Notes: generated by a model from the letters alone, not told the origin. A DNA stretch of 64,000 nucleotides from a virus (IMGVR_UViG_3300025858_000011); one strand, 5' to 3'. Positions 20,034 through 64,000 are shown, numbered from the stretch's first letter. Numbers and translations are program-made.

Positions 20034-21059
20034 TTATATTTCAAATGCCTTTGCTTTAACCCATTTTCTATTTGTTAATAGCCATTCTTTTCGAACAACT
20101 ACTGACGCATAAACGGGATTATTATTCAAAAGCATACATTGTCCTATAAGCTGTTCATTACGAAGACTTACTACCTGAACGGAATCTACAGTCTCATCAG
20201 TTTCAGTAATAAGCGGATCATCAATCAATTCACTGACGATCTTTCTTGCCAAAAGCATCTCTTCAGCTTTTGCTTTATCATAATTTGCAAGAACTTCATC
20301 GATGGTTGACACATTTGCATCGATATGTACGTAGGTTTTATAGTCAACAGTTTTTTTGACATCGATGTCTTTTGACAATCGAATTGCTGCCGTACCATAA
20401 CAGGTGCGGATCAACGCGTCAAATACTTCCCGAAAGAATTCTTCATTAGGGCATCTTTCGATGCCAAATACCACACCATTGATTAAAATGATAGCGCCAA
20501 CCTGACCCTTTACAGGTTCAAATTGAACTACGAATTCATCCAATTCTTTCTGAAATTTCTCGTAGAAGTATATCAAATGCCCCTCACTACGTGAAATTCC
20601 TGATTCATTATTAAATCTGGTGATATAAGGCCATAGCTTAGAGTAAGACTCTTTTCCTTTTAATGCAGTAGCATCTGCACGAAGTGCCCATGGTAAAATT
20701 GCTAATGACTTTTTACCACGCGACAAATGACCGCCCTGTGTTTGTTGAATACAGGCGCAATCATTATACTGCTTTGTTTTACCCTTTGTAACATATCCCA
20801 TGCGCATCATCGCATGATCCTGGGCACTTTCTTTGGTCATATAAGATGCATGTGCCGGTATAATGATGCTTTTATCAGTTACATTGATAAACGTAAGATT
20901 ACCATATGCTGAGTTTGTTACCTCGGCATTAGTAGATGATACAAAGTCTTCACATTGAAGTCCTTTGTCTAATAACAATGGAATCATCGTGAAAACTCCT
21001 ACGTGCTGCATATTTCCAACTACGCATCCTCGTAGTATATCTCTCGTATTAGTAAGCAT
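20034..21059 (-). CDS. hypothetical protein (341 aa), partner of vWA protein
   Basis: ORF abutting the vWA gene (2-nt gap). Confidence 0.55.
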   Translation of the reverse strand: MLTNTRDILRGCVVGNMQHVGVFTMIPLLLDKGLQCEDFVSSTNAEVTNSAYGNLTFINVTDKSIIIPAHASYMTKESAQDHAMMRMGYVTKGKTKQYNDCACIQQTQGGHLSRGKKSLAILPWALRADATALKGKESYSKLWPYITRFNNESGISRSEGHLIYFYEKFQKELDEFVVQFEPVKGQVGAIILINGVVFGIERCPNEEFFREVFDALIRTCYGTAAIRLSKDIDVKKTVDYKTYVHIDANVSTIDEVLANYDKAKAEEMLLARKIVSELIDDPLITETDETVDSVQVVSLRNEQLIGQCMLLNNNPVYASVVVRKEWLLTNRKWVKAKAFEI

Positions 21060-43288: not shown

Positions 43289-43816
43289 TTATAGGGATGT
43301 ACGTTGATAGTGCATAGAAAGTAGATCATTGAGATGATCAGCACAACCAAGCTTATCCATGTTTTGTAGGTCTGTATTAAACCTTTTAAGGTGCCCATGT
43401 CTTCCCATTGAGTAGTATAGTTTTTTTGTGACAATCACATGATCCATTAATGTAATATTAAAAATTCCGGCGGCTGAAAAACAAAGTCTTGTAGTTTCGA
43501 TGTCCGCCGAACTTGGATTTGGATCGCCACTTGGATGATTATGAACAAGGATAATTCCTCGTGCACCCGTTAATAAAGCGGTTTGCAACATCGCTACTGG
43601 GTCTAGGTCAAGCCCGTGCCGTGGTCCCTTTGCAAGAACATACTTTGCGATGATGTCCATTTTTCCGTTTAGATATAATGCAATCAGTGTTTCCGTAGCA
43701 AGATTGCGAATATCCCCAACGAGGTCAAGAACATCCTCCAGATATCTAGCATGTTTTCGAGCTCTGGACTTTTTTACAACGTGAAGTTCAATTTCCTCGT
43801 AGCTGTAAGTTTTCAT
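43289..43816 (-). CDS. radC: RadC-like JAB/MPN domain protein
   Basis: ILVHNHPSGDPNPSSADIETTRL JAMM-like motif. Confidence 0.7.
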   Translation of the reverse strand: MKTYSYEEIELHVVKKSRARKHARYLEDVLDLVGDIRNLATETLIALYLNGKMDIIAKYVLAKGPRHGLDLDPVAMLQTALLTGARGIILVHNHPSGDPNPSSADIETTRLCFSAAGIFNITLMDHVIVTKKLYYSMGRHGHLKRFNTDLQNMDKLGCADHLNDLLSMHYQRTSL

Positions 43817-49154: not shown

Positions 49155-51359
49155 ATGAATCAGCTGTTTCTCACACCGACAATAGAGAAACAAGCTACAT
49201 ACCATGTCATCGGCAGAGATCAAACTCAGTGGGTGAAGGACATTGTAACTAAATTTCTTGAAGAATATCCTTTCTTGCAAAATTCACCACTAACGGTGAC
49301 ATGGACTAAAAAAGATGCAACAAAGGGGTATGCCGTCGGATCGCTACATGTACTTGGAGGACAGGTACCATTAATTATTAAAGAAGGAGCGTTAGCTCCG
49401 ATGGATGTTATCATGTTTCCTGGAAATGCAACTGTACCATTGAGTGAGTCAATATTGAAAGAATTGATGGCCGAGCCAACTCCATTTAAAGGGGTCACTA
49501 TGGCAAAAGGAAAGTCAAATCTGGGATTATGGGGAGAAACTGTTGCAGGATTGCAATGGTCACCTACGGATACTGATACAGACGCATTAAATACGGAAGA
49601 GTCTTCATCTACTAGAGACGCTATTAAAGTTTCTTCTTTTATTGACAATATTGGACAAATTGGTAAAGATGCCGCTAAAGAAATTTTATTAGAGGTAAAG
49701 AATAGTCCTGAATTATTAGAAGGTTTTAAAAAGAATGGTACTTTATCTGTATTGGAGAAACTTGCTAAGGCTGTAGATGCCGTAGATGAAGTTGATTCTT
49801 TTGTAAGGGGTCTTGAAATTGATAGACAATGCTTATTTTCAGATAAGTTTGGTAATTATCATGTAAAAATGGCAAATCATCAGGTTGATCATACTTGGGA
49901 GGTAGAAATTGCTCCTAATGAGGTAGAAACCATCGTTGAAAAATTTGCTGCTTGTAAACCTCAGAAAAAATCCGCAAAAACTCTTAAAAAGGCCAATGCT
50001 TATAAAATATTAGACAAAAAAGCCTATTTATATGTTGATGAAAGCAAGAATTGGAGCATATTAGAGGGTGATTTAGTTAAAAATTCAGTTGAAAATGTTA
50101 AAATTGCGTCAAATACCCCTCAAATTGGTGACATTGGAGTATGGAAGATTGATGATGTAGTAACAACGCCTTTTGAAATTATAGCTATTTCAAAGAATGC
50201 AGAGTTTGAAAAGGGTAATTTATATAAATTAGCTAATAGAGTTGGATCATTATATATAAATGAACAAAAAGAATGGTCTATAGATGATAAAACTATTACT
50301 AAGACAGCAACTGTTGTTGATATTGAGGGTGTTGATCCACAAGTAGGTGACCATGGTTGTTGGATAATTGGTGACGTGGCAACTACGCCATTTGATATAG
50401 TTGGGATGCAGAAGCTTTCGACAGTCGGTGGTTGGAAGATAATTGCACATGATGGTTTGAATAAGGTATCTTACTATCCAATAAGACCTAAAAATGCATC
50501 TATTACTGCACATGATGCCGAAAAATCAGCTTTTTATGTGCCAGGAAATGCAAAATTTGTGAGATTAGACCAAAAATTAGTTAAAATTGCTGGATTGACA
50601 AGGGCTAATACTGCTGCAGAGTCTGGAATTATTGAAATATTGGCATTAGAGGGGCTAACCAAGCGTTCTTTCTTAATAACTCGTCAAAAAGATGGACAAT
50701 TTGAGAAAAATTCAGCATATATTCCAGAAAATGCTGATTTTATAAAATTATCGTCTAGAATTAAGATTTCTGAGGATAATTTTGATTTATTAGAGCCAAC
50801 TGCCATAGTTACACGTGATACGTCTGGTCTTTATAATGTAAGTGGCAATGTTGCTGAAAAATATGCAGCGATGCATTCCATTAGAGATTTAGAGAAAAAT
50901 GATATAAAATGGGCATTAACTCATCTAGGAGCTACCATAGTTGATTTGCAAAAGGTTGCAAATCTAAAAAAAGGAGAATTTACTAAGATTTCATCTGATT
51001 TATCATGTCCAGTTGATCCAAAAGTAATTATAACTGCTATTAAAACTAATTATGATGCATCAAGTTCAAAAATTGCGATGCTTACTAAAAATCTTGTGAA
51101 AGAAGCTGCAGTTTTAACGGATGAAACTACTGTTGATGCTGTTTTGTCATTAGGTTTACTTAGAAAAAATAATGTAGCAGAGTATATTGCATTAATTCCT
51201 GATTATGAGAAAATAATGTCAGAATTAGCAAAATTACTTGTTTCCACACGATTAGGTATGACTCAGTTACCAGAGTATGTAGTAAAAAATGCGATGGAGG
51301 GAGTTACTAGTGTTGTGGAGATTTTGCGTGGTATTAGAGCATCATTGATGAAAAATTAG
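49155..51359 (+). CDS. large virion-type hypothetical protein with internal duplicated segment
   Basis: ~734 aa from ATG 49155 (GGAGG SD; the six-frame ORF opens at 49119); repeats PQIGDIGVWKIDDVVTTPFEIIAIS / PQVGDHGCWIIGDVATTPFDIVGMQ. Confidence 0.6.
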   Translation: MNQLFLTPTIEKQATYHVIGRDQTQWVKDIVTKFLEEYPFLQNSPLTVTWTKKDATKGYAVGSLHVLGGQVPLIIKEGALAPMDVIMFPGNATVPLSESILKELMAEPTPFKGVTMAKGKSNLGLWGETVAGLQWSPTDTDTDALNTEESSSTRDAIKVSSFIDNIGQIGKDAAKEILLEVKNSPELLEGFKKNGTLSVLEKLAKAVDAVDEVDSFVRGLEIDRQCLFSDKFGNYHVKMANHQVDHTWEVEIAPNEVETIVEKFAACKPQKKSAKTLKKANAYKILDKKAYLYVDESKNWSILEGDLVKNSVENVKIASNTPQIGDIGVWKIDDVVTTPFEIIAISKNAEFEKGNLYKLANRVGSLYINEQKEWSIDDKTITKTATVVDIEGVDPQVGDHGCWIIGDVATTPFDIVGMQKLSTVGGWKIIAHDGLNKVSYYPIRPKNASITAHDAEKSAFYVPGNAKFVRLDQKLVKIAGLTRANTAAESGIIEILALEGLTKRSFLITRQKDGQFEKNSAYIPENADFIKLSSRIKISEDNFDLLEPTAIVTRDTSGLYNVSGNVAEKYAAMHSIRDLEKNDIKWALTHLGATIVDLQKVANLKKGEFTKISSDLSCPVDPKVIITAIKTNYDASSSKIAMLTKNLVKEAAVLTDETTVDAVLSLGLLRKNNVAEYIALIPDYEKIMSELAKLLVSTRLGMTQLPEYVVKNAMEGVTSVVEILRGIRASLMKN

Positions 51360-52204: not shown

Positions 52205-52480
52205 ATGGGTAAAGCTGAAACAATTATGGATGGTATGAAGTATTTATTGCGCAGAACAAAACAATTACCACAGAATATAAGTGAAGTGGTTGCTGCAAAT
52301 AAGATAGTAAATAAGAAAGTGCCTATTGACATGTTTTCTGATACAACAAAGATTATTAATGAGGCTAAGAGAGTAAGACAAGTTGGTTTAAAGAAGATTT
52401 GGCAAGGAGCTCAACTTCCTTTAGCTGCTGGTGCTGGAGGTGGGTTAGGTCTTGCTGCCACTAGGTCATCTGATCAGTAA
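52205..52480 (+). CDS. hypothetical protein (91 aa)
   Basis: ORF. Confidence 0.45.
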   Translation: MGKAETIMDGMKYLLRRTKQLPQNISEVVAANKIVNKKVPIDMFSDTTKIINEAKRVRQVGLKKIWQGAQLPLAAGAGGGLGLAATRSSDQ

Positions 52481-52532: not shown

Positions 52533-52922
52533 ATGGATAATATGATGAAAACATTAATTATAGATGATGAATTACAAGCATATGACTGTGTTAAGAACAT
52601 GTTGGGGTGCTATGATGTAGCTGAAACTGGTTTGATAGGGATCGAGTATGCTGAGACTGCTCTAAAAGTTAACTCCTATTATAATTTAATTTTATTAGAT
52701 GTTGTAATACCAGGTCTTAATGGCATAGAAGTTATAAAAAGGCTTAGAGATCTTGAAAAACATTACAACATCAAGTCAATTAGGGAAGCTAAAATTATAG
52801 TAGTCTCATCTCGTAGGGATGAGCCTGCTATACTAGAGGCATTCAGGAATGGAGCAACAGGATGGATTGAGAAACCAGTAGTTACAGATATACTTATAAC
52901 TAAACTAAAAAACTTAATGTAA
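52533..52922 (+). CDS. stand-alone response-regulator receiver (REC/CheY-like) domain protein
   Basis: LIIDDE acidic pocket, LILLDVVIPGLNG phospho-acceptor Asp, IVVSS, GATGWIEKP. Confidence 0.65.
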   Translation: MDNMMKTLIIDDELQAYDCVKNMLGCYDVAETGLIGIEYAETALKVNSYYNLILLDVVIPGLNGIEVIKRLRDLEKHYNIKSIREAKIIVVSSRRDEPAILEAFRNGATGWIEKPVVTDILITKLKNLM

Positions 52923-53112: not shown

Positions 53113-53342
53113 AGTCTTATCCTTTCTCTGGTGAAAAACTTGACCTTTATTAGGTCCGTCAATACTCTTATACCATAAAATACAAATAATCTTGCGAGAT
53201 TGGGTCCCATACACTACCCCCTCCCTCGTTCCAGGATCTAACCTGTAATTTATATATTTTATTGTATCTGGTATCAAATTCGAAAACCTAAAATTTTTTT
53301 TGGAAAAAAACACACATGAATAAAGCGCAAAATATTATAATA

Positions 53343-53372
53343 TAAAAAGAGAGCCTTGCGGCTCTCTTAGAT
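53343..53372 (-). terminator. intrinsic terminator (minus)
   Basis: AGAGAGCCGCAAGGCTCTCT + TTTTATATT. Confidence 0.55.
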
Positions 53373-53374
53373 GC

Positions 53375-53541
53375 TACGACTGCTGAGCGTTATACTCACG
53401 CAATCCTTGCATCGCAATTTCCATTTCCTTTTTTTGCCACTCAACTAGATGGGGTGCAACAACTACTGCAAGCAGTATCGCACAGGCACCAGCAACGATG
53501 GGAGCTCCATAGTCGCACACGAAGTTTTTAATTCTGTTCAT
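53375..53541 (-). CDS. small membrane protein (55 aa)
   Basis: CAGGAGA SD + ATG; MNRIKNFVCDYGAPIVAGACAILLAVVVAP; motif copy at 53588 upstream. Confidence 0.4.
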
Positions 53542-53620
53542 TGTGTATCTCCTGAAATGAAGTGAATGTACTTCGATTAATTACATAGTTCTTATATACC
53601 ATAAAATTTAGAGAAATAGT

Positions 53621-53878
53621 ATGTTTAAATTTTCAGCAACTAAAATGATACAATTACTTAGAGAGGGAAAACTATCTCTGGAAGCAGCTGGAGAAGCTGC
53701 AAAGAAATTAAATTTAAATACTCGCACTATAAGTGAACTAGGAAGAGGTGCTGAAGGAATAGCAGAAAAGGCCATCGGTGCAAGATTTACTGATACTGGA
53801 TTTGGTGTAATGAAAACTTATAATCCTACAGGTATGCTATATAGTGATAAACAATTTTTAGCTAAAACTAAAGCATAG
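53621..53878 (+). CDS. hypothetical protein (85 aa)
   Basis: ORF. Confidence 0.45.
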   Translation: MFKFSATKMIQLLREGKLSLEAAGEAAKKLNLNTRTISELGRGAEGIAEKAIGARFTDTGFGVMKTYNPTGMLYSDKQFLAKTKA

Positions 53879-53959
53879 GAAACTCTTGGAAAAGATAAAC
53901 AATTTGCAAAGTATTATGGAAAACATGATACTAGACCAACTACATACCATGAGTTAATT

Positions 53960-54403
53960 GTGGGAGATAAAAGAGATAGTTTTCTTGATGAACGTGTTCT
54001 GATACCTGCATTTTTAACTGGAGCAAAAGCAAGACTACATGGATTTAAAATTGGAGATACTTTTATAAATCCAGGAAATGTAATAAATACGGCATCCGGC
54101 CCAAAGGTTATTGATTTTTTAGTAAAAGGTCATCCACAAGTTGGTATGATGTCAGGAAGGGAGGCAATAAAAGCATTATTTTCTACAGATCCTGTGGCCA
54201 GATTTGGAAGTTTATTATTAAAACGGGTAAACGGAGTAGCAACAGCAGGCAGTGATATTAGGAAACTAAATAATGCAAAGATAGTGGATCCATCGGCTTT
54301 TAATAAAGTAGACAGAGTCATGGGAGCAATAGGCGCTCATAAGGTACCTTTAATTATAGGTGGTGTATCTAGTACGATCGCCATAAACAATAGGAGAAAA
54401 TAA
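53960..54403 (+). CDS. hypothetical protein (147 aa)
   Basis: ORF. Confidence 0.5.
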   Translation: MGDKRDSFLDERVLIPAFLTGAKARLHGFKIGDTFINPGNVINTASGPKVIDFLVKGHPQVGMMSGREAIKALFSTDPVARFGSLLLKRVNGVATAGSDIRKLNNAKIVDPSAFNKVDRVMGAIGAHKVPLIIGGVSSTIAINNRRK

Positions 54404-54407
54404 TGAA

Positions 54408-54485
54408 ATGAATAAAGCACAAGTAGTATTTAATAAATTGGCATTTATAGCTGTTACACCATTTAAAGAGGAAATAAGCATATGA
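54408..54485 (+). pseudogene. truncated copy (25 codons) of the MNKAQVVFNKLA-leader family
   Basis: MNKAQVVFNKLAFIAVTPFKEEISI*; stop overlaps the ATG of the next full-length paralog. Confidence 0.35.
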
Positions 54486-54796
54486 ATAAAGCGCAAATAG
54501 TATTTGAAAAATTAGCACTTTCTCCTGAGTTACTAGAGAGGGCTTCTGTAAAAGCTTTTGATAAAGCTTACACATATAGTGAATTGGCGAGGGCCGCTCA
54601 TCTTGATGGGGATTTGGTTCAAAAAAAATTATTTAAAGGTTTGGAAAATAAATTTACTAATAAATCTATCAAGTTTGACACTGCTGCATTTAAAAAGGGC
54701 CTGGCAGAACCATCCGCAGAAGCAATGGCCCTTTCTAAAAGAATTTTAAGTAAATTTTCAAAAGATGATCTGGACTTATTAAGTAGATTAATATAG
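54482..54796 (+). CDS. MNKAQ-leader family protein (104 aa)
   Basis: MNKAQIVFEKLALSPELLERA... Confidence 0.55.
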   Translation: MNKAQIVFEKLALSPELLERASVKAFDKAYTYSELARAAHLDGDLVQKKLFKGLENKFTNKSIKFDTAAFKKGLAEPSAEAMALSKRILSKFSKDDLDLLSRLI

Positions 54797-54915
54797 TGGA
54801 TAAAGTACAACCAATATTTAATAAGTTATCAGCATACGGTCCCGCGGGTACCCGGGAACGAATGAATAATTATTATAGTGGTATCAGAGAACTATTTAAA
54901 CCGAAGAAGTAAACA

Positions 54916-55011
54916 ATGAATAAAGCACAGGTAGTATTTAGTAAATTAGCAGAAAAGTTAAGTCCTCTTTTTAAGGGGCCACTAGAGGCGGAAAAGACTA
55001 TCCAATGGTAA
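54916..55011 (+). pseudogene. truncated copy (31 codons) of the MNKAQ-leader family
   Basis: MNKAQVVFSKLAEKLSPLFKGPLEAEKTIQW*. Confidence 0.35.
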
Positions 55012-55277
55012 AGCTTCGTTCAAAGGATTATTATAAAAATGTAGTTTTACCAGATACATTAGAACGCGGTGCAGGCATTCTTCCAGCAACTGCAGCAGCG
55101 GCGTATGCAATGGTAAAGGGCAAAAAGAACCTGGTGTTTGGACTGGGTGGGGTCAGTGTTTTGGGCGCATTAGTTGCTGGACATCGTGCAAATAAAAGAG
55201 ATCAAAAATGGCTTGGAGAACATGGTATAAAAAGAAATTATTTTAATACGAAATTTGAGAGGTTAAAAAGTGAATAA
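55005..55277 (+). CDS. hypothetical protein (90 aa) with Gly-rich hydrophobic segment
   Basis: ORF. Confidence 0.45.
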   Translation: MVKLRSKDYYKNVVLPDTLERGAGILPATAAAAYAMVKGKKNLVFGLGGVSVLGALVAGHRANKRDQKWLGEHGIKRNYFNTKFERLKSE

Positions 55278-55533
55278 AGTAAAAATATTATTTGGAAAAC
55301 CCTTGGCTAAAACAGAAAGAAATGTAGCTGCAACAAAAGAATTAAAAACAAATTGGAATGAGTTCCATCGGATGTCCAAGAGAAATAGAGCAGCTGGATA
55401 TGCAATACATGGAGATAAGGAATTAGAAAAATATGTTACCAGGATAGTAAATGGCTTAAAACTTCCAGTAGCAGCAACAGGCGTAGTGGCAGCAACTGGA
55501 CTCGCTGGCAAAAAATTATTGGATAAGAATTGA
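55270..55533 (+). CDS. MNK-leader family protein (87 aa)
   Basis: MNKVKILFGKPLAKTERN... Confidence 0.45.
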   Translation: MNKVKILFGKPLAKTERNVAATKELKTNWNEFHRMSKRNRAAGYAIHGDKELEKYVTRIVNGLKLPVAATGVVAATGLAGKKLLDKN

Positions 55534-55597
55534 CTTTGTATCTCGGATGTGTTATATTAAATAAAAGTACACGATTAATAATTAGAGGAAGAATCAA

Positions 55598-56215
55598 ATG
55601 TGGACAGAGGTAATCGTCGCACTTATATCATCAATTACAACTCTTGCGGCGCTTTTTATTACTAATTATTTAAAACATAAAAATGCGAAAAAAAGATCTT
55701 TAAATCATCGTATCCAAAGAGACGTAGTAGTATATGAAATATTAAATAGTATCAAGACTAAATTTAAATTTAGTAGAGTAGTAATTATATTATTTCATAA
55801 TGGTTCCAAGTATTTTAGTGGTGAACCAATACAGAAAGCATCAGTTGTATTTGAAACTGTATCACCGGGCATCGACCCCATCGGTAAATCGATGCAAGAT
55901 ATTCCAGTATCAACGATGACTGTAGCATTAAAAGCAATCTCTTCTGAAGGTTGGTTCCTCATCGATGATATCGAAAAGATTGATGATGAGCATTATAAGA
56001 ACCTAATGAAGAGTTATAGAGAAACTCAACATTATTCTTATAAAATTGAAGACGTAGATGGTTGGATTGGAATATTAACTTGTGATTACACAGTAGAAAA
56101 CTCACAACCTCCATTAACTAGGGAGTGTGCGGAATATATTCGTCTTCAGGCTGGAAGACTTGCTACGTTGTTAAAATTGACAAATAAAATTTATGGAGTC
56201 CACAAAAATGAGTAG
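55598..56215 (+). CDS. hypothetical protein with N-terminal TM (205 aa)
   Basis: ORF. Confidence 0.55.
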   Translation: MWTEVIVALISSITTLAALFITNYLKHKNAKKRSLNHRIQRDVVVYEILNSIKTKFKFSRVVIILFHNGSKYFSGEPIQKASVVFETVSPGIDPIGKSMQDIPVSTMTVALKAISSEGWFLIDDIEKIDDEHYKNLMKSYRETQHYSYKIEDVDGWIGILTCDYTVENSQPPLTRECAEYIRLQAGRLATLLKLTNKIYGVHKNE

Positions 56216-57335
56216 ACTATCAGAATGGCAAGAAGCAAGAAAAAAACATGGTTGGTTTAATAGAAGAGATATTAATAGTTCTATCGATCCTAAGATAAAA
56301 AAAATTAGGGCAGCCTATCCACTCGAAACACATCTTGACCTTGATGAAAGGTTATTTCCAGGACCATGGGACTCATTTGGAGAAGGACTTCATCAGGCGC
56401 GTAATATGTCAAATGACAAATTACGTAATATCCTTATTAAGCAAGATATCACTCCAAGGACCGTAGGACTTTTTACGGAGTATATGTTTAGAGAAACCGT
56501 AGATCAGGAAATTCTTGATAAGTATAAGAATATTAATATTGATAATTATCTTGCTTTTATTAAACGTCGTATGGCAGAAGCAAATTCGGCAGAGACACTT
56601 AGTGCCATCGGAAATTTTGGTGCATTTGGAATATCCCTGGGCGCTGGTTTCGCATTAAATAGAATGGCTAGTAATTCTGAAAATATAACTCCATTCATTG
56701 ATTTTATTAAGAAAAAAGATAACATCGATACTACAGTTAATGTAATTGATGATACACTTTTTTCTAGATTTTCTCAGTCAAAGAATCTGGCATCAGTTGG
56801 TAAAGACTTGGCTATAGCAGGACACGAACTTGGACATGCAAAAAATTATGCACAACTTAGTAAATATTTTGGAAAAGCTGCTCCAATTATAAGCACTGTT
56901 ACTTATAATGGACTTGGTGACATTCCATTTATTGGCCGTGTATTTGGTAAATCAATAGGAGGGGTACCATTACTTGGGTTAGCGGCGATTCCTTTTGCTG
57001 ATCGTAGATTTACTAATAAATTAAAAAGTGACGATCGGCACTCGATGCAAAATAAGGCGGTAGATTACATCGAGCGGCATCCGTTACAACTTGGAGCATT
57101 AGCGGTGTCTCCTAAGTTAATTGAAGAGGGATCTGCTACAGTAAGAGCTTTAAATAATCTTGGAAGATATAGTGGTGCTGCATCTGCACTTAAAGGATCT
57201 CCTAAGTTATTAACTGCTTTTGCAACATATCTTGCGGCTGCGGCTCTTCCAGTCCTTGCAATCAATTTTATTAATAAAAAAACAAAAGGGACACAGCAAG
57301 CACAGACATACTTAAGAAATAGGATCGTAAACTAA
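56193..57335 (+). CDS. hypothetical protein (380 aa)
   Basis: ORF. Confidence 0.55.
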   Translation: MESTKMSRLSEWQEARKKHGWFNRRDINSSIDPKIKKIRAAYPLETHLDLDERLFPGPWDSFGEGLHQARNMSNDKLRNILIKQDITPRTVGLFTEYMFRETVDQEILDKYKNINIDNYLAFIKRRMAEANSAETLSAIGNFGAFGISLGAGFALNRMASNSENITPFIDFIKKKDNIDTTVNVIDDTLFSRFSQSKNLASVGKDLAIAGHELGHAKNYAQLSKYFGKAAPIISTVTYNGLGDIPFIGRVFGKSIGGVPLLGLAAIPFADRRFTNKLKSDDRHSMQNKAVDYIERHPLQLGALAVSPKLIEEGSATVRALNNLGRYSGAASALKGSPKLLTAFATYLAAAALPVLAINFINKKTKGTQQAQTYLRNRIVN

Positions 57336-57336
57336 T

Positions 57337-57906
57337 ATGCCAGCAAAAAGTAAAAAACAACAAAGATTCATGGGAATGGTTCACGCTTATAAAACAGGAC
57401 AACTTCCCGAGTCAAAAGCATCTCCTCAGATAATTGCGGCGGCTAGGGCAATTACCGATAAAACAGCAAGAGAATTTGCAAAATCTGCAGGCGTTGCTTC
57501 TACTGCAGTTACTTTATATAAGAAGCCGCCGCTACGAACTAGAATTCTAAGAACTGTCCTAGAGGACATGATCCCTGGATTCCTTGGAGGAGCCGCGGGC
57601 GGAGCAATTCCTACTGCCATTACCTACGCGGCTGATACCCAAAATATCAGACAACAATCTGGAATGCCTCCGGCTACTACGATGGCTGAAAAATATAAAG
57701 GATTTGATACCAAGATGTTTAAGACCATCGCATCCGTAGGATTAACATTTGCATTGGCTAAACCACTTGAGGACTATGTTAAGGCTATGTCTAAAGTACA
57801 TCCAAAACTAGTACGCGCGGGTGCAGGCGCTGGATTAGTTGGGCTAGGTGCTCTTGGTACTCGCATCGTTAGACGTAATAATATGGAATTAAAAAAGAAT
57901 GCATAA
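57337..57906 (+). CDS. hypothetical protein (189 aa), Gly/Ala-rich hydrophobic segments
   Basis: ORF. Confidence 0.5.
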   Translation: MPAKSKKQQRFMGMVHAYKTGQLPESKASPQIIAAARAITDKTAREFAKSAGVASTAVTLYKKPPLRTRILRTVLEDMIPGFLGGAAGGAIPTAITYAADTQNIRQQSGMPPATTMAEKYKGFDTKMFKTIASVGLTFALAKPLEDYVKAMSKVHPKLVRAGAGAGLVGLGALGTRIVRRNNMELKKNA

Positions 57907-58465
57907 AGTAGCAGTAACAGCTGATCAAATAATGGCTGGAAAAAGTATTTTTAACATTGCTAATAAAGGCACGTATCGCAGGATAATGATGGAGCAACCA
58001 GATGTTAAGAAGGTATTAAAGTTCTTTGGAAAGATAGATAAAAAACTTGAAAATGCTGGAGGGGACCTTTTCATAAAACAACACGGTTATGGGTCACTTC
58101 GTAAAAATCTTAGAGATCAGTTTAATTTAAATTTTATGAAAAACTACGATACTTCTTTAGGCACAGTAATAAAGTCTAATACTGGTAAGAAATCAATTGT
58201 TTTAAATTCTAAATTTTTTGATTTGCCTAAAAAAGAAAGACGTAATATATTACATCATGAAGCTTTTCATGTTAAAAATCCTATATTAGGCAAATCCGAA
58301 ATACTCGCACATATGTATGGCAATTATAAGACCAAAGATTCTATAGTAGCAGGAATTGCACATTTAATTAAGACCAGGCCTGATAGATTTTTATTAGAAG
58401 CTATTCCATTGGCAGGGGTAGTGGCAGGAACCGGGTTAATAACAAAAAAAGTAATAGGAGATTAA
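57899..58465 (+). CDS. hypothetical protein with HExxH motif (possible small zincin-like peptidase)
   Basis: ILHHEAFHV. Confidence 0.35.
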   Translation: MHKVAVTADQIMAGKSIFNIANKGTYRRIMMEQPDVKKVLKFFGKIDKKLENAGGDLFIKQHGYGSLRKNLRDQFNLNFMKNYDTSLGTVIKSNTGKKSIVLNSKFFDLPKKERRNILHHEAFHVKNPILGKSEILAHMYGNYKTKDSIVAGIAHLIKTRPDRFLLEAIPLAGVVAGTGLITKKVIGD

Positions 58466-58466
58466 T

Positions 58467-58757
58467 ATGTTTGTATTTAACGCGATGTTTATAACAATCA
58501 TGGGAACCGTGATAGTTCCCTTTGTAGCACAATGGTTAAAGAAAGAATCCTGGAGTCGCGCATTGAAGTTCCTTGTTACCGTAGGACTATGTCTGGTAAC
58601 TGGTGGCATCGGCTATGTTGCATCAGGATATGCACTTGCAGAATTTGCCGTAGTTGCAAAGGGAGTATTTATATTAGCAATTTCTTCTTATACTCTATGG
58701 TGGAAGAAAGTATTTGAAGAGTCTATAACGATGAAGTCATTGGGATTACGTAAATAA
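58467..58757 (+). CDS. membrane protein (96 aa)
   Basis: three TM helices. Confidence 0.5.
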   Translation: MFVFNAMFITIMGTVIVPFVAQWLKKESWSRALKFLVTVGLCLVTGGIGYVASGYALAEFAVVAKGVFILAISSYTLWWKKVFEESITMKSLGLRK

Positions 58758-58766
58758 GGAGATAAA

Positions 58767-59378
58767 ATGAACAAGGCAGAAGTAGCATTTAATAAATTAG
58801 CAAATCTTTTTCATGTGCCACCTGGTGGAAAATCAGTGGCTCAGTTAATAGTAGATGCCAAAAATATACCGGACGAAGTAAAAAGTGCTAAGGCATTAAA
58901 AAATATTCTTAGGGAGTATCCTGAGGCAGAGTACCTGGTACGTAGATTTACCGGAAAAACTGGAGCTGGCGCTGTATATCGTAAAGGTAAGTCTTCAATA
59001 AGATTTGATATGAAAAAGATATCAACATTAGTAATGACTTCTCCACAAAATGCGCTTGATCAAAGAAAAGCTAGAGCTGCAGTTGTTCTTGATAAATCTT
59101 ATGCTACGCCGATGGTTGGGGGAGCAGTACTTGGGGCACTTACAGGGGCAGCAATACCAACACACAATGGTTCATATAAGAAATTATTAATTCAAGCTGG
59201 CGTAGGAGCGGCGCTAGGAACAAGTGCAGGTGCTACGGCAAAAGTCATTACTAATGCAAGAGCCAAGAGTTTATTAAATCCTGAAAATGATCTAGAGAAC
59301 AAGATGGAGATAGCTGCTCGGCGTAATAGAATAGCGATGACTTTGACTAAAGCTGATGTACCAGTAATAGTATCATGA
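58767..59378 (+). CDS. MNKAE-leader family protein (203 aa)
   Basis: MNKAEVAFNKLANLF... Confidence 0.55.
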   Translation: MNKAEVAFNKLANLFHVPPGGKSVAQLIVDAKNIPDEVKSAKALKNILREYPEAEYLVRRFTGKTGAGAVYRKGKSSIRFDMKKISTLVMTSPQNALDQRKARAAVVLDKSYATPMVGGAVLGALTGAAIPTHNGSYKKLLIQAGVGAALGTSAGATAKVITNARAKSLLNPENDLENKMEIAARRNRIAMTLTKADVPVIVS

Positions 59379-60706
59379 TATTAGGAATTCCAAATATTAA
59401 ATTTTTTTCTCCAGCACCCCAGACTCAATCTGAGGGAGAGACCTGGAGACTAAATGTTCAGGAGCACGCAGCAGATAAAGCTGGATTACATTATGATCTT
59501 CGCCTGGGTCCACCTGGATCCGATGATGCATTATCATGGGCAATTCGTACTACGTCCCTGCCCTCTGCTGGTCAAAAGGTATTAGCAGTAGAACAACCTA
59601 CGCATGCAAAGTCTTACATGGGTTGGTCCGGTAAAATTCCGGAGGGATATGGTGCTGGAGAAGTTAAGTCCATTATCGATGATCAAGTTGAGATTTTAAA
59701 GTCAAGCCCTGATCAGATTGAATTCGTGATGCACTCATCACAGATTCCGCAACGTTTTATGCTAAAACGTACATCTGGCCGAGACTGGTTATTCTATAAT
59801 TACACAGCTACTGACTCAAATAAATTAATTCCAGATTATAAACCATCATATCAGGAAATAAGCATGGGAGACGTTCATACCATCGATGAGAACGAAGTTC
59901 TCTCTCCCAAGATTGATGGTGCCCATAATACTATTATATTACGGCCTGAGAAGAGAATTGATCTTTATTCTTATCGTAAATCCAAACGTTCTAATGAACG
60001 CATCGATCATTCTTATAAAACTGATTTTTATAAAATTCGATCACCTAAGGACCTCGGTACAACCGTTCTTCGTGGGGAACTTTACATGCCGGGTCAATCA
60101 GCAACAACGATTGCAGGAGTATTAAACTCTAATACACTTAAGGCAAGAGAAAAACAAAAAGAACTTGGAACACCACTACGTGTAATGGCTTTTGACGTAG
60201 TAACGTTTAAAAACAAGAACGTTGAAAACGCCCCGTACCGAGATAAACTTGATATGCTACGAGAAGTAAATTCATACTTACCAGAAATTGAATTACCAGA
60301 GCTTGCTTACACTCCTGATCAGAAGGTTAAGTTATTGGATGAAATTAAAAAGAAAAAGCACTCATTGACCGAAGAAGGCGTAGTTATTTATAAGTTAGAT
60401 AAGGCAGTTCCGATGAAGGCTAAAGTAAAAAGTGATTATGATGTACTTATAACTGGAGTATATCCAGCACAACCTGGAACCAAATATTCTGGAAATGCCA
60501 TCGGAGGATTCGTAGGTATTCCTGAGAATGGAAAGTCTGTAATTCAAATCGGCTCTGGACTTAGTGATGAACTTCGAAGATCGGCATACTTAAATCCGGA
60601 GAGATTTATCGGAAATTGGGCAAAAATTGAAGGACAACTTCAATATGAGGATTCCGGAAAATTACGAATGCCTATATTTAAAGGATTTCGTATTGATAAA
60701 TATTAA
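59375..60706 (+). CDS. ATP-dependent DNA ligase with N-terminal LigD-type 3'-phosphoesterase-like domain
   Basis: HYDLRLG (PE-domain-like), ligase motif I SPKIDGAHN, MAFDVV, C-terminal RMPIFKGFRIDK. Confidence 0.65.
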   Translation: MILGIPNIKFFSPAPQTQSEGETWRLNVQEHAADKAGLHYDLRLGPPGSDDALSWAIRTTSLPSAGQKVLAVEQPTHAKSYMGWSGKIPEGYGAGEVKSIIDDQVEILKSSPDQIEFVMHSSQIPQRFMLKRTSGRDWLFYNYTATDSNKLIPDYKPSYQEISMGDVHTIDENEVLSPKIDGAHNTIILRPEKRIDLYSYRKSKRSNERIDHSYKTDFYKIRSPKDLGTTVLRGELYMPGQSATTIAGVLNSNTLKAREKQKELGTPLRVMAFDVVTFKNKNVENAPYRDKLDMLREVNSYLPEIELPELAYTPDQKVKLLDEIKKKKHSLTEEGVVIYKLDKAVPMKAKVKSDYDVLITGVYPAQPGTKYSGNAIGGFVGIPENGKSVIQIGSGLSDELRRSAYLNPERFIGNWAKIEGQLQYEDSGKLRMPIFKGFRIDKY

Positions 60707-63223: not shown

Positions 63224-64000
63224 ATGGGTAAATTTTATAAATCAGCGTCTGAACTAAAACCGCACCAACAACGGGTCATCGATAAACTTCGTAATGAAGA
63301 CTCAATATTAGTATATCATGGAGTTGGTTCCGGTAAGACTCTTACCGCTCTTGAAGCTGGTGAACAGCTTAATCTTCCGATGGACATCATCGGTCCTGCA
63401 GCATTAAAGTCAAATTTTGCCAAGGAAAAGGCAAAACATCATGTAAAGGTTCCATTTAAATATTTTAGTTATAATAAACCCCCCGCGGCATCGGAGGTTA
63501 ATTCCGGAAATAAATTATTAGTATTTGATGAGGCTCATAATATGGGTCGCATGGAAAGCGCCAGATCACATTATCCTGATCAGTATTATGGTAATAAGAC
63601 TATGTTCCTCACTGGTACTCCATTGCGTAATTCTCCCGATGAATTAATTCCACTCATGCGTGGATTGGGAGTTGCTGTTCCTAGGGATCGTCAACGTTTC
63701 AATAATTTATTCGTAGAAGAAATTGTTAAGAAACCAAGTTTTCTTGCAGCTACGATGCTTGGAGTAAAACCTGGTACTATAAAAGTTCCCAGAAATCTCG
63801 AGTTATTTAAGAAACTATTAGAAGATAAAGTTGATTATTACAAACCTGAATCGGCTGATTATCCATCAGTATCAGAAAGTACTAAGATAGTTGAAATGAG
63901 TGATCGTCAATTTGATACCTACAAAGAAATGATGAAGGGTAATCCTGGATTAGCTTATAAAGTTAAACATGGATTACCGCCTGATAAATCAGAGGCATCA
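63224..64000 (+). CDS. SF2 (DEAD/DEAH, SNF2-like) helicase, N-terminal part (continues past window end)
   Basis: Walker A GVGSGKT, DEAH box LLVFDEAHNM, motif III LTGTP. Confidence 0.7.
   Translation, partial: MGKFYKSASELKPHQQRVIDKLRNEDSILVYHGVGSGKTLTALEAGEQLNLPMDIIGPAALKSNFAKEKAKHHVKVPFKYFSYNKPPAASEVNSGNKLLVFDEAHNMGRMESARSHYPDQYYGNKTMFLTGTPLRNSPDELIPLMRGLGVAVPRDRQRFNNLFVEEIVKKPSFLAATMLGVKPGTIKVPRNLELFKKLLEDKVDYYKPESADYPSVSESTKIVEMSDRQFDTYKEMMKGNPGLAYKVKHGLPPDKSEAS

Follow-up and report, generated by a model that had tools for sequence, protein, structure and literature searches.

A short N-terminal leader on otherwise unrelated proteins of uncultivated jumbo phages is probably a shared recognition tag

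Introduction

How jumbo phages select the proteins that they package and inject is largely unknown outside T4. Here we describe a 12-residue N-terminal leader, MNKAQVVFNKLA, which recurs at the start of otherwise unrelated genes in a 64,000-nucleotide stretch of viral DNA (IMGVR_UViG_3300025858_000011; the whole stretch is referred to below as the window) and in related loci from other uncultivated phages. The closest described system is the capsid-targeting sequence (CTS) of T4, the first 10 residues of which are enough to bring foreign proteins into the core of the prohead (PMC9026906, PMC3012670). The T4 internal proteins are basic, and their CTS is removed by the gp21 protease, with the cleavage motif L/I-x-E (PMC9026906). 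The jumbo phages phiKZ and SPN3US also package many proteins, including the subunits of a virion RNA polymerase (RNAP), which are ejected into the host (PMC5694885, PMC10052503).

The leader described here resembles the T4 CTS, as found on IPI, IPII, IPIII and Alt, in being a peptide of ~10-12 residues at the extreme N-terminus that is movable between proteins, and in being carried by unrelated, basic, dispensable-looking proteins whose genes are poorly conserved between related phages. The two differ in sequence, however: the T4 CTS reads MKTYQEFIAE, whereas position 5 of the leader is E, Q or K following K-A, rather than part of an L/I-x motif. Furthermore, neither a gp21-type protease nor a gp22 scaffold was recognised with Pfam or PHROGs in the 64-kb window, which is part of a genome of at least 204 kb; the clade is an unrelated one, its uncultivated jumbo phages carrying a multisubunit RNAP as well as an SNF2 helicase; and the cargo, putatively packaged, includes large enzymes and Gly-zipper proteins. 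Thus, while the first-pass annotation of the window likened the leader to the CTS, and this likeness stands for a short N-terminal peptide that is widespread, interchangeable and co-varying, it does not extend to any relationship in sequence. Since there is no sequence similarity, no L/I-x-E motif and no gp21 or gp22 homologue recognised in the window, we call the leader CTS-like and not a member of the CTS family.

Two further systems invite comparison. As in phiKZ and SPN3US, the genes carrying the leader lie near RNAP-beta-like and head genes. The propeptide-bearing inner-body and ejection proteins of phiKZ and SPN3US are cut at S/A/G-x-E by a T4-like protease, whereas no similar cleavage motif was found in the leader proteins, and we know of no report that the phiKZ and SPN3US proteins share one short conserved leader. 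The cargo-loading peptides of encapsulins are also short, dock diverse cargo inside an HK97-fold shell and are not removed; they are usually C-terminal. Unlike the leader, they have a different consensus, without homology to it, and serve a bacterial nanocompartment rather than a virion.

Results

Copies of the leader in the window

Six open reading frames (ORFs) of the window, at 54408, 54482, 54796, 54916, 55270 and 58767, begin with M-[ND]-K-[AV]-[QEK]-x-[VIL]-F-x-K-[LP]-[ASL] (Table 1). A search of the window with the 36-mer leader, allowing up to 3 mismatches, returned 2 matches against 0.00 expected, and its 21-mer core returned 4 against 0.04 expected; a chance origin of the copies is excluded. 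Every copy lies at the start of an ORF on the plus strand, with none among the 80 ORFs of the minus-strand block. When seven leader starts were aligned, the likeness ran from the start codon through codon 12 and then ended, while the DNA upstream was not conserved.

All of the copies listed in the first-pass annotation were read in the sequence where it had placed them, although the partial copy that it put at 53332 is a remnant lying inside a nine-codon ORF (53318-53347). Directly 3' of this remnant, at ~53348-53372, there is a GC-rich hairpin with a T run that is terminator-like in sequence. The stop codon of the truncated gene at 54408 overlaps the start of the next gene, at 54482 (ATGA). 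Judging from its sequence, the ORF at 52205 may tentatively be added as a degenerate copy, agreeing with the consensus at M1, K3, A4, E5 and I7 only.

Table 1. Leader-bearing genes and associated features in the window (aa, amino acids).
Position	Strand	Feature	Basis or remark
49155..51359	+	Conserved 734-aa protein (746 aa from 49119), always just upstream of the tagged array	16 homologues
52205..52480	+	Candidate degenerate copy of the leader, MGKAETIMDGMK, 91 aa, C-terminal LPLAAGAGGGLGLAAT segment	
53318..53347	+	Leader remnant, 9-codon ORF MNKAQNIII and stop (ATGAATAAAGCGCAAAAT)	Direct reading and alignment of starts
54408..54485	+	Truncated leader gene, 25 aa, MNKAQVVFNKLAFIAV / MNKAQVVFNKLAFIAVTPFKEEISI and stop; pseudogene remnant	
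54482..54796	+	Tagged protein, 104 aa, MNKAQIVFEKLA followed by LSPELLERA...; basic, no hydrophobic segment	
54796..54912	+	Leader ORF, 38 aa, GTG start, (M)DKVQPIFNKLS	Absent from the first-pass list
54916..55011	+	Leader-only ORF, 31 aa, MNKAQVVFSKLA / MNKAQVVFSKLAEKLSPLFK	7-nt overlap with the 55005 ORF
55005..55277	+	Basic protein, 90 aa, with Gly/Ala-rich uncharged segment LVFGLGGVSVLGALVAG	
55270..55533	+	Tagged protein, 87 aa, GTG start, (M)NKVKILFGKPL, with C-terminal LPVAATGVVAATGLAGKK segment	
56193..57335	+	Candidate peptidase, 380 aa, HExxH (AGHELGHAKN), hydrophobic segments	Zn_peptidase_2, sub-threshold
57337..57906	+	189-aa protein with DUF3008-like N-terminus MPAKSKKQQRFMGMV / MPAKSKKQQRFMG	PHROG matches to residues 1-50 only
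57899..58465	+	SprT-like HExxH protein, 188 aa, with C-terminal IPLAGVVAGTGLITKK segment	SprT-like E 1.3e-4, below cutoff
58767..59378	+	Tagged protein, 203 aa, MNKAEVAFNKLA; basic, Gly-zipper segment	Gly-zipper_YMGG match, sub-threshold
63224..64000	+	SNF2-family helicase, short tag variant MGKFYKSA, cut by the window end (464 aa in L001, 14458-15852)	

The leader recurs in related loci and is conserved as a peptide

Related loci were fetched and given L-numbers, L001 being the contig of the window itself, extended past the window's end. A degenerate DNA pattern with codons 6, 7 and 9 left free yielded 11 loci in JGI metagenome contigs, and a slightly looser pattern yielded 10 from IMG/VR, with contigs as long as 210 kb; additional syntenic loci were fetched via the conserved 746-aa neighbour of the array. 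A strict leader pattern gave 0 matches in IMG/VR, and a leader pattern gave 0 matches in GTDB genomes. At the 21 metagenomic or IMG/VR loci found by pattern scans, each match is the start of an ORF placed after a ribosome-binding site, and most loci contain several tagged genes. The positions left free by the pattern hold I, V or L, like the copies in the window, and positions unconstrained by the search patterns still give M at -2, N/D at 2 and V/I/L at 7. Homologues of the 54482 protein with the same leader are present in L008, L006, L012 and L015, and the L002 orthologue of the 58767 protein (82% identical) has kept the leader.

The full catalogue comprises 63 distinct tagged ORFs from 24 loci, with the consensus M-[ND]-K-A-[EQ]-x-[VIL]-F-x-K-[LI]-A and the core phi-x-K-phi-A. 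Across these 63 ORFs, position 12 carries ~3.5 bits of information, whereas only ~0.6 bits remain at position 13 and beyond; the hydrophobic positions 4, 7, 8, 11 and 12 share one helix face. The codons AAA, GCA, GAA and TTT encode the conserved residues in 82-95% of cases, with synonymous differences between leaders (GCA/GCG, CAA/CAG, TTG/TTA, AAT/AAC). Because the conserved residues use multiple synonymous codons, selection acts on the peptide. The first-pass annotation had noted that the copies are nearly identical as DNA, and three of the window copies do differ at 0-5 of 36 nt; however, this near-identity is explained by conservation of the amino acids together with an AT-rich codon bias, and is therefore not independent evidence of recent recombination.

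When a profile of the 30-aa N-termini was compared with 1.84 billion representatives, only the window proteins and a close orthologue were found; the threshold of E <= 0.001 lies beyond the reach of a 12-residue motif in such a search. The literature searches brought up no account of this leader, and it is apparently both undescribed and widespread in uncultivated jumbo phages.

Tag-like motifs were also seen inside proteins or near their C-termini (L024:10836, L026:15697, L027:~15320 and L032:9489-10120), for example ...LSKAEQTFNKYAK and ...TAELDKAQTVFEKLVK. These may stem from fused genes or from starts inside a gene, or the tag may also function at sites other than the N-terminus.

The tag is joined to unrelated, basic proteins

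Beyond the leader the proteins diverge completely, as the first-pass annotation had noted: BLAST sorts the 54 tagged bodies of 30 aa or more into 49 clusters, 44 of them singletons. The tagged proteins are between 15 and 466 aa long, and include a helicase of the SNF2 family (L015; matched by Pfam SNF2-rel_dom at 3e-16 and by Helicase_C), a DUF5662 protein (L018), a 160-aa protein with an HExxH motif (L011; HELVH, identified by eye) and, with a variant of the tag, a thioredoxin (L033). They are strikingly basic: their net charge per 100 aa has a median of +10.8, whereas that of the remaining window ORFs is 0.0 (Mann-Whitney p = 1e-14). In 19 of the 63, there are also Gly/Ala-rich uncharged segments of 14 residues or more.

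A related segment recurs in many of the proteins encoded between 51369 and 59378, whether tagged or not (examples being those at 52205, 53960, 55005, 55270, 57337, 57899 and 58767). It consists of [LIV]P[LV]AG, a Gly/Ala-rich uncharged stretch of 14-17 residues and then K/R, and mostly lies near the C-terminus. This layout resembles that of tail anchors or C-terminal sorting signals, with a hydrophobicity that is marginal (KD19 0.9-1.7).

Two known classes of N-terminal signal were tested and do not match the leader. A Sec, lipoprotein or Tat signal peptide was rejected, as the leader has no more than 3 hydrophobic residues in a row (V-V-F), compared with 7-15 or more in the h-region of such a peptide, the N-terminus of the 54482 protein reaches a maximum KD19 of 0.47, and there is neither a twin arginine nor a lipobox. 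A double-glycine leader of the bacteriocin/RiPP kind was rejected as well: the leader found here has no GG motif, and the cargo extends to 466 aa and includes enzymes. Among the Pfam matches for the L001 genes of the array and its flanks, there was no family of C39-peptidase transporters or RiPP enzymes.

Tags are exchanged between orthologues and co-vary within genomes

The 189-aa protein encoded at 57337 begins with a DUF3008-like module, whereas its orthologues carry a KA[EQ] leader (VNKAEKTFDFL in L002 and MNKAQIIFNKLA in L027); the DUF3008 module of L027 stands upstream as a gene of its own. Pfam is silent on the window protein at E <= 0.1, while PF11450 (DUF3008) is recorded for its homologue L026:15487. 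Like the leader, DUF3008 (MPxxSKKQQxFMG) is a short N-terminal module on diverse phage proteins, and here it replaces the leader on orthologues, but its sequence is different, with a KKQQxFMG motif of its own. Orthologues with different N-terminal modules are better evidence of shuffling than are the truncated copies discussed below.

The SNF2 helicase, a family for which we found 988 homologues at E <= 1e-20, provides a larger sample. The window protein is 55% identical to L015:3743-5143, from a 210-kb IMG/VR contig, which starts MDKALFIFEKLA. Among SNF2 orthologues with an N-terminal extension, 63 of 93 contain phi-x-K-x-A, compared with 10.4 +/- 3.0 (maximum 21) in shuffled sequences. Furthermore, in each lineage examined, the variant of the tag on the helicase is the same as that on unrelated proteins of the same contig. 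This variant is MDKAxxxFEKLA in L015 and L032 (at least 12 genes within 10 kb of L032), MQKTAQQ[LI]A[HY]EVI.KVA in L031, where the helicase shares it with four further proteins, FPLLEK[VYI]A on at least 9 genes around the large terminase subunit gene (TerL) in L034, and FW.GF..K.A on the helicase and the thioredoxin of L033. Such co-variation within genomes points to one co-evolving, phage-encoded receptor. It is predicted neither by common descent of whole genes nor by a role of the peptide inside each fold.

In an AlphaFold 2 (AF2) model of a tagged SNF2 protein (P0040; overall pLDDT 91.8), residues 2-12 form a separate helix of low positional confidence (pLDDT ~48) ahead of the first core helix, a prediction that fits a tag lying outside the cargo fold. 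Taken together, we consider it probable, with some assurance, that the leader is a shared recognition tag.

The helicase of the window itself begins differently. In alignment, MGK----FYKSA against MDKALFIFEKLA looks like the main leader minus four residues, and a start of the form MGK[FY][FY], a second conserved one, is shared by the SNF2 helicase and by small proteins unrelated to it, some of which have Gly-zipper segments (L001:19147, just past the window end; L002:6569 and 7306; L010:771 and 1046; L013:6907(-); L024:12510 and 13328).

Truncated copies are decayed genes in a fast-changing array

The first-pass annotation took the truncated copies to suggest recombination at the leader. The copy at 54408, however, consists of the leader and 13 body codons (FIAVTPFK...), and this body matches L026:14551-14997 (148 aa; 72% over 18 aa, E 5e-5) as well as L027:18138-18566 (142 aa). 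This copy is a true remnant, left by the decay of a gene that other loci carry at full length. In L027 it is the orthologue of the 58767 gene (L027:12631) that has decayed: the leader is left with 24 codons and a stop, and the rest of the gene lies frameshifted behind them. Since remnants retain body codons, they point to decay by deletion and not to an exchange from leader to leader, and they do not support the earlier proposal.

The leader-only ORF at 54916 could be joined to 55005-55277 by a single indel within 54975-55011, a stretch with G4 and A4 runs, so that the 55005 protein may be the body of the preceding leader ORF; the pair may be one split gene or two genes. The 55005 protein has no homologue among the fetched loci. 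A programmed frameshift was considered here and rejected, as the overlap has no canonical X XXY YYZ heptamer. The content of the array between the 734/746-aa gene and the ligase differs among the window, L024, L026 and L027. The best reading of the 54.4-55.5 kb array together with the 58767 gene is that of a fast-turnover cargo locus that holds decayed copies.

Tagged genes lie near head and packaging genes in relatives

In the relatives, tagged genes are found beside genes for head formation and DNA packaging. In L020, a 131-kb contig, TerL is followed by an 85-aa tagged gene, ORFs of 379 and 172 aa without a family match, a protease-like protein of 606 aa, ORFs of 166 and 145 aa, and then the major head protein. 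The 606-aa protein matches phrog_18299 (head maturation protease) and has no homologue in the window. The portal gene adjoins tagged genes in L019, L016, L023 and L007, and TerL does so in L017 and L034. An RNAP-beta-like gene lies just upstream of tagged genes in L018 and L022, and in L033 a fused RNAP beta/beta' gene is followed by one small gene and then by the tagged helicase. The plus-strand leader block of the window is syntenic with the TerL-adjacent blocks of its relatives. Within the window itself, the 'virion-gene block' of the first-pass annotation is backed only by this synteny and by sub-threshold matches to VgrG and the gp138 spike; the head and packaging neighbours in relatives lend a virion connection partial support.

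The nearest cultured relatives of the helicase, in Pseudanabaena phage PA-SR01 and Salmonella phage Arash (33-35% identity), are encoded among head genes. Arash gp217 is a 35% identical orthologue of the window helicase, and in purified Arash virions mass spectrometry coupled to liquid chromatography (LC-MS) detected it as an abundant protein with 38 unique peptides and 1148 spectra, a level similar to the 1333 spectra of the major capsid protein (MCP), with 1210 for RNAP beta' (PMC10585845).

Two side observations concern these loci. The TerL of related IMG/VR phages (L020:9037-11643(-), and L017 from 4718 onward) is 868 aa long and also matches PHROGs of thymidylate synthase and ribonucleotide reductase, which suggests an intein or other insertion. 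Between the tagged genes and the portal there is a protein that looks like an actin/ParM-type ATPase (IDIGTNT, judged by eye, with no PHROG match) in L019:3636-4616(-), L023:3812-4861(-) and L016:15-395.

Conserved neighbours of the array

The array is preceded by a conserved trio of genes for proteins of 693, 226 and 746 aa, and is followed by a DNA ligase. This arrangement is kept in L024, L026, L027, L010, L013, L014 and L033, and in L033 the trio lies ~1.6 kb from TerL. The N-terminus of the 734/746-aa protein, MNQLFLTPTIEKQA, resembles the tag. This protein aligns collinearly, though weakly, with gp218, a structural protein of Arash (E 0.0015 among 208 ORFs). It returned nothing in a phmmer search of PDB sequences, and its AF2 model (pLDDT 73) had no match at E <= 0.001 when compared with the PDB using Foldseek, and matched only an uncharacterised phage protein in BFVD. 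The 693-aa protein has sub-threshold profile matches only, to VgrG and the phi92 gp138 spike (E ~0.2).

Of the two HExxH proteins in the array, that at 56193 has HELGHA homologues in L026 and L027; for that at 57899, an L011 protein with the same kind of HExxH, the motif being compared by eye only, carries the leader. The right-hand border of the variable array is formed by the ligase (59375-60706), in which a LigD 3'-phosphoesterase domain is fused to an ATP-dependent ligase, and which is conserved in L002, L024 and L027. An odd gene within or next to the array encodes a stand-alone response-regulator receiver protein (52533-52922, 129 aa; Pfam Response_reg); it has homologues in L003, L004, L008 and L027, and the ORF L010:3287-3604 is similar by appearance only.

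The window as part of a jumbo-phage-like genome

The contig to which the window belongs is jumbo-phage-like. The 203-aa protein encoded at 58767 forms just two clusters among 5.8 billion proteins and occurs on contigs of 0.2-1 Mb; its NCBI entry is a hypothetical protein in a Bacteroidales metagenome-assembled genome (MAG), its longest contig being 204,363 bp. A search of IMG/VR for related loci using this protein returned no relatives, and the INPHARED phages gave zero matches to either the window region (BLASTN) or the 746-aa protein (tblastn). The window encodes a DUF5906 primase and the LigD_N-type ATP-dependent DNA ligase, while the majority of its proteins have no Pfam or PHROG match. 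It also contains 21 tRNA genes, dispersed among small ORFs on the minus strand between 5533 and 33717; two have the anticodon TAT (Ile), and a scattered tRNA set of this kind is typical of huge phages.

Two minus-strand genes, at 20034-21059 (-) and 43289-43816 (-), encode one ARPP-1 domain protein (Pfam E 8.6e-26) and one protein with the look of RadC/JAB, a likeness that rests solely on the motif HNHPSGDPNPSSAD as judged by eye. These early-block genes are possible candidates for roles in defence or anti-defence.

Discussion

The best single reading, at chances that we judge about even, is that the leader acts as a capsid- or virion-targeting tag, CTS-like in action and unrelated to the T4 CTS. 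In such a mechanism, the tag would form a short amphipathic helix with A4, V7, F8, L11 and A12 on one face, and would be joined to otherwise unrelated, mostly small and very basic proteins. A single phage-encoded partner would recognise it, most likely a part of the head under assembly, be it scaffold, core, portal or the inside of the shell, and the tagged proteins would be loaded into the virion and delivered to the host along with the DNA, as the T4 CTS does for internal proteins. We infer the packaging and ejection of the tagged proteins, as well as the prohead location of the partner. Cleavage by a prohead protease, a T4 feature named in the first-pass annotation, finds no support here: the leader ends in K-[LI]-[ASG] rather than L/I-x-E, nothing is conserved past residue 12 and no T4-type protease was found in the window with Pfam or PHROGs.

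Several observations weigh against virion targeting. No cleavage motif follows the tag, and Pfam and PHROGs turned up no gene for a capsid protein, portal, terminase or prohead protease in the 64-kb window, where the conserved 746-aa neighbour has no known fold in the PDB and BFVD searches. Arash gp217 has no tag, nor was the leader found in the 75 kb of Arash scanned, and since gp217 is packaged untagged, the proteomic link concerns the cargo family and not the tag. Moreover, the Arash proteome lists 116 proteins, among them ribonucleotide reductases, and may therefore include contaminants (PMC10585845). The Gly/Ala-rich segments, which are present in several untagged neighbours as well as in the 19 tagged proteins, would equally suit membrane proteins, and a few tag-like motifs (L024:10836, L026:15697) are internal.

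It is thus worth asking whether the tag specifies an address other than the capsid, such as a phage chaperone, the complex of RNA polymerase and helicase, a complex for ejection or in the membrane, or a compartment that the phage makes in the infected cell. Co-variation and interchangeability prove a common partner, but not its site; in L018, L022 and L033 the tagged genes come just after RNAP-beta-like genes; and the Gly-zipper-like segments, followed by K/R clusters, have the look of tail anchors. These segments are only marginally hydrophobic, however, and because the tag is found on a thioredoxin as well as on a soluble SNF2 helicase, it is no signal for membrane insertion as such. The DNA ligase and primase of the same genome lack a tag, which speaks against a general address for a replication compartment, and the gene neighbourhood is one of head and packaging. 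On this evidence we think a non-capsid address rather unlikely. A regulatory signal at the N-terminus, either a degron for ClpXP, Lon or a phage protease or an optimiser of translation initiation, is improbable. ClpX recognises known N-terminal motifs, HExxH or trypsin-like genes are found in the same arrays, and codons 2-5 (AAT AAA GCA GAA) are AT-rich, as is usual for efficient starts. Yet conservation acts at the level of amino acids, with synonymous variation, in contigs of 29-41% GC; upstream regions are not conserved; and start-codon context does not explain the conservation of F8, K10, L11 and A12. The lineage variants also differ in length and sequence while keeping phi-x-K-phi-A, which is better fitted by a co-evolving phage receptor than by a host protease.

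The leader could also have no common function at all, and be the slowest-evolving part of a tandem paralogous family whose bodies have diverged. The copies are indeed tandem and clustered, some bodies are weakly similar or alike in composition (basic, Gly/Ala-rich), and the pseudogene remnants speak of rapid gene birth and death. Nevertheless, the tag is found on independent folds (SNF2 helicase, thioredoxin, DUF5662), orthologues of one protein carry different tags, and tags co-vary among unrelated proteins of one genome, leaving this explanation very improbable. The odds are longer still on the 36-nt leader being a DNA-level recombination site for the exchange of cassettes, in the manner of the mobile regulatory cassettes found in T4-type hyperplastic regions, with the peptide being incidental. 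The few differences among the three window copies (0-5 of 36 nt), the array content that differs in every relative and an L027 leader lying just downstream of a decayed gene could all be read in this way. Codon bias accounts for the DNA identity, however, the DNA varies between contigs while the peptide is kept, the remnants (leader plus body codons) indicate deletion, and 36 nt is short for efficient homologous recombination.

Returning to virion targeting, a more general form of it can be put forward, tentatively and at somewhat less than even chances. A large clade of uncultivated jumbo phages that share an SNF2 helicase and multisubunit RNAP genes may use an uncleaved amphipathic N-terminal helix of 8-17 residues (phi-x-K-phi-A) as a code, read by a prohead receptor that co-evolves with it in each lineage and applied to a changing injected cargo, with an origin independent of the T4 CTS. 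The injected set would then include the helicase, thioredoxin, metallopeptidase-like proteins and small basic Gly-zipper peptides.

The tag marks dozens of unannotated protein families as one functional class. If virion targeting is true, co-variation of tag variants with candidate proteins would point to the receptor, and the tag would offer a portable handle for bringing foreign cargo into phage capsids, as the CTS does for T4. The injected proteome of uncultivated phages, including candidate effectors of anti-defence and host takeover, would then be readable from the genome.

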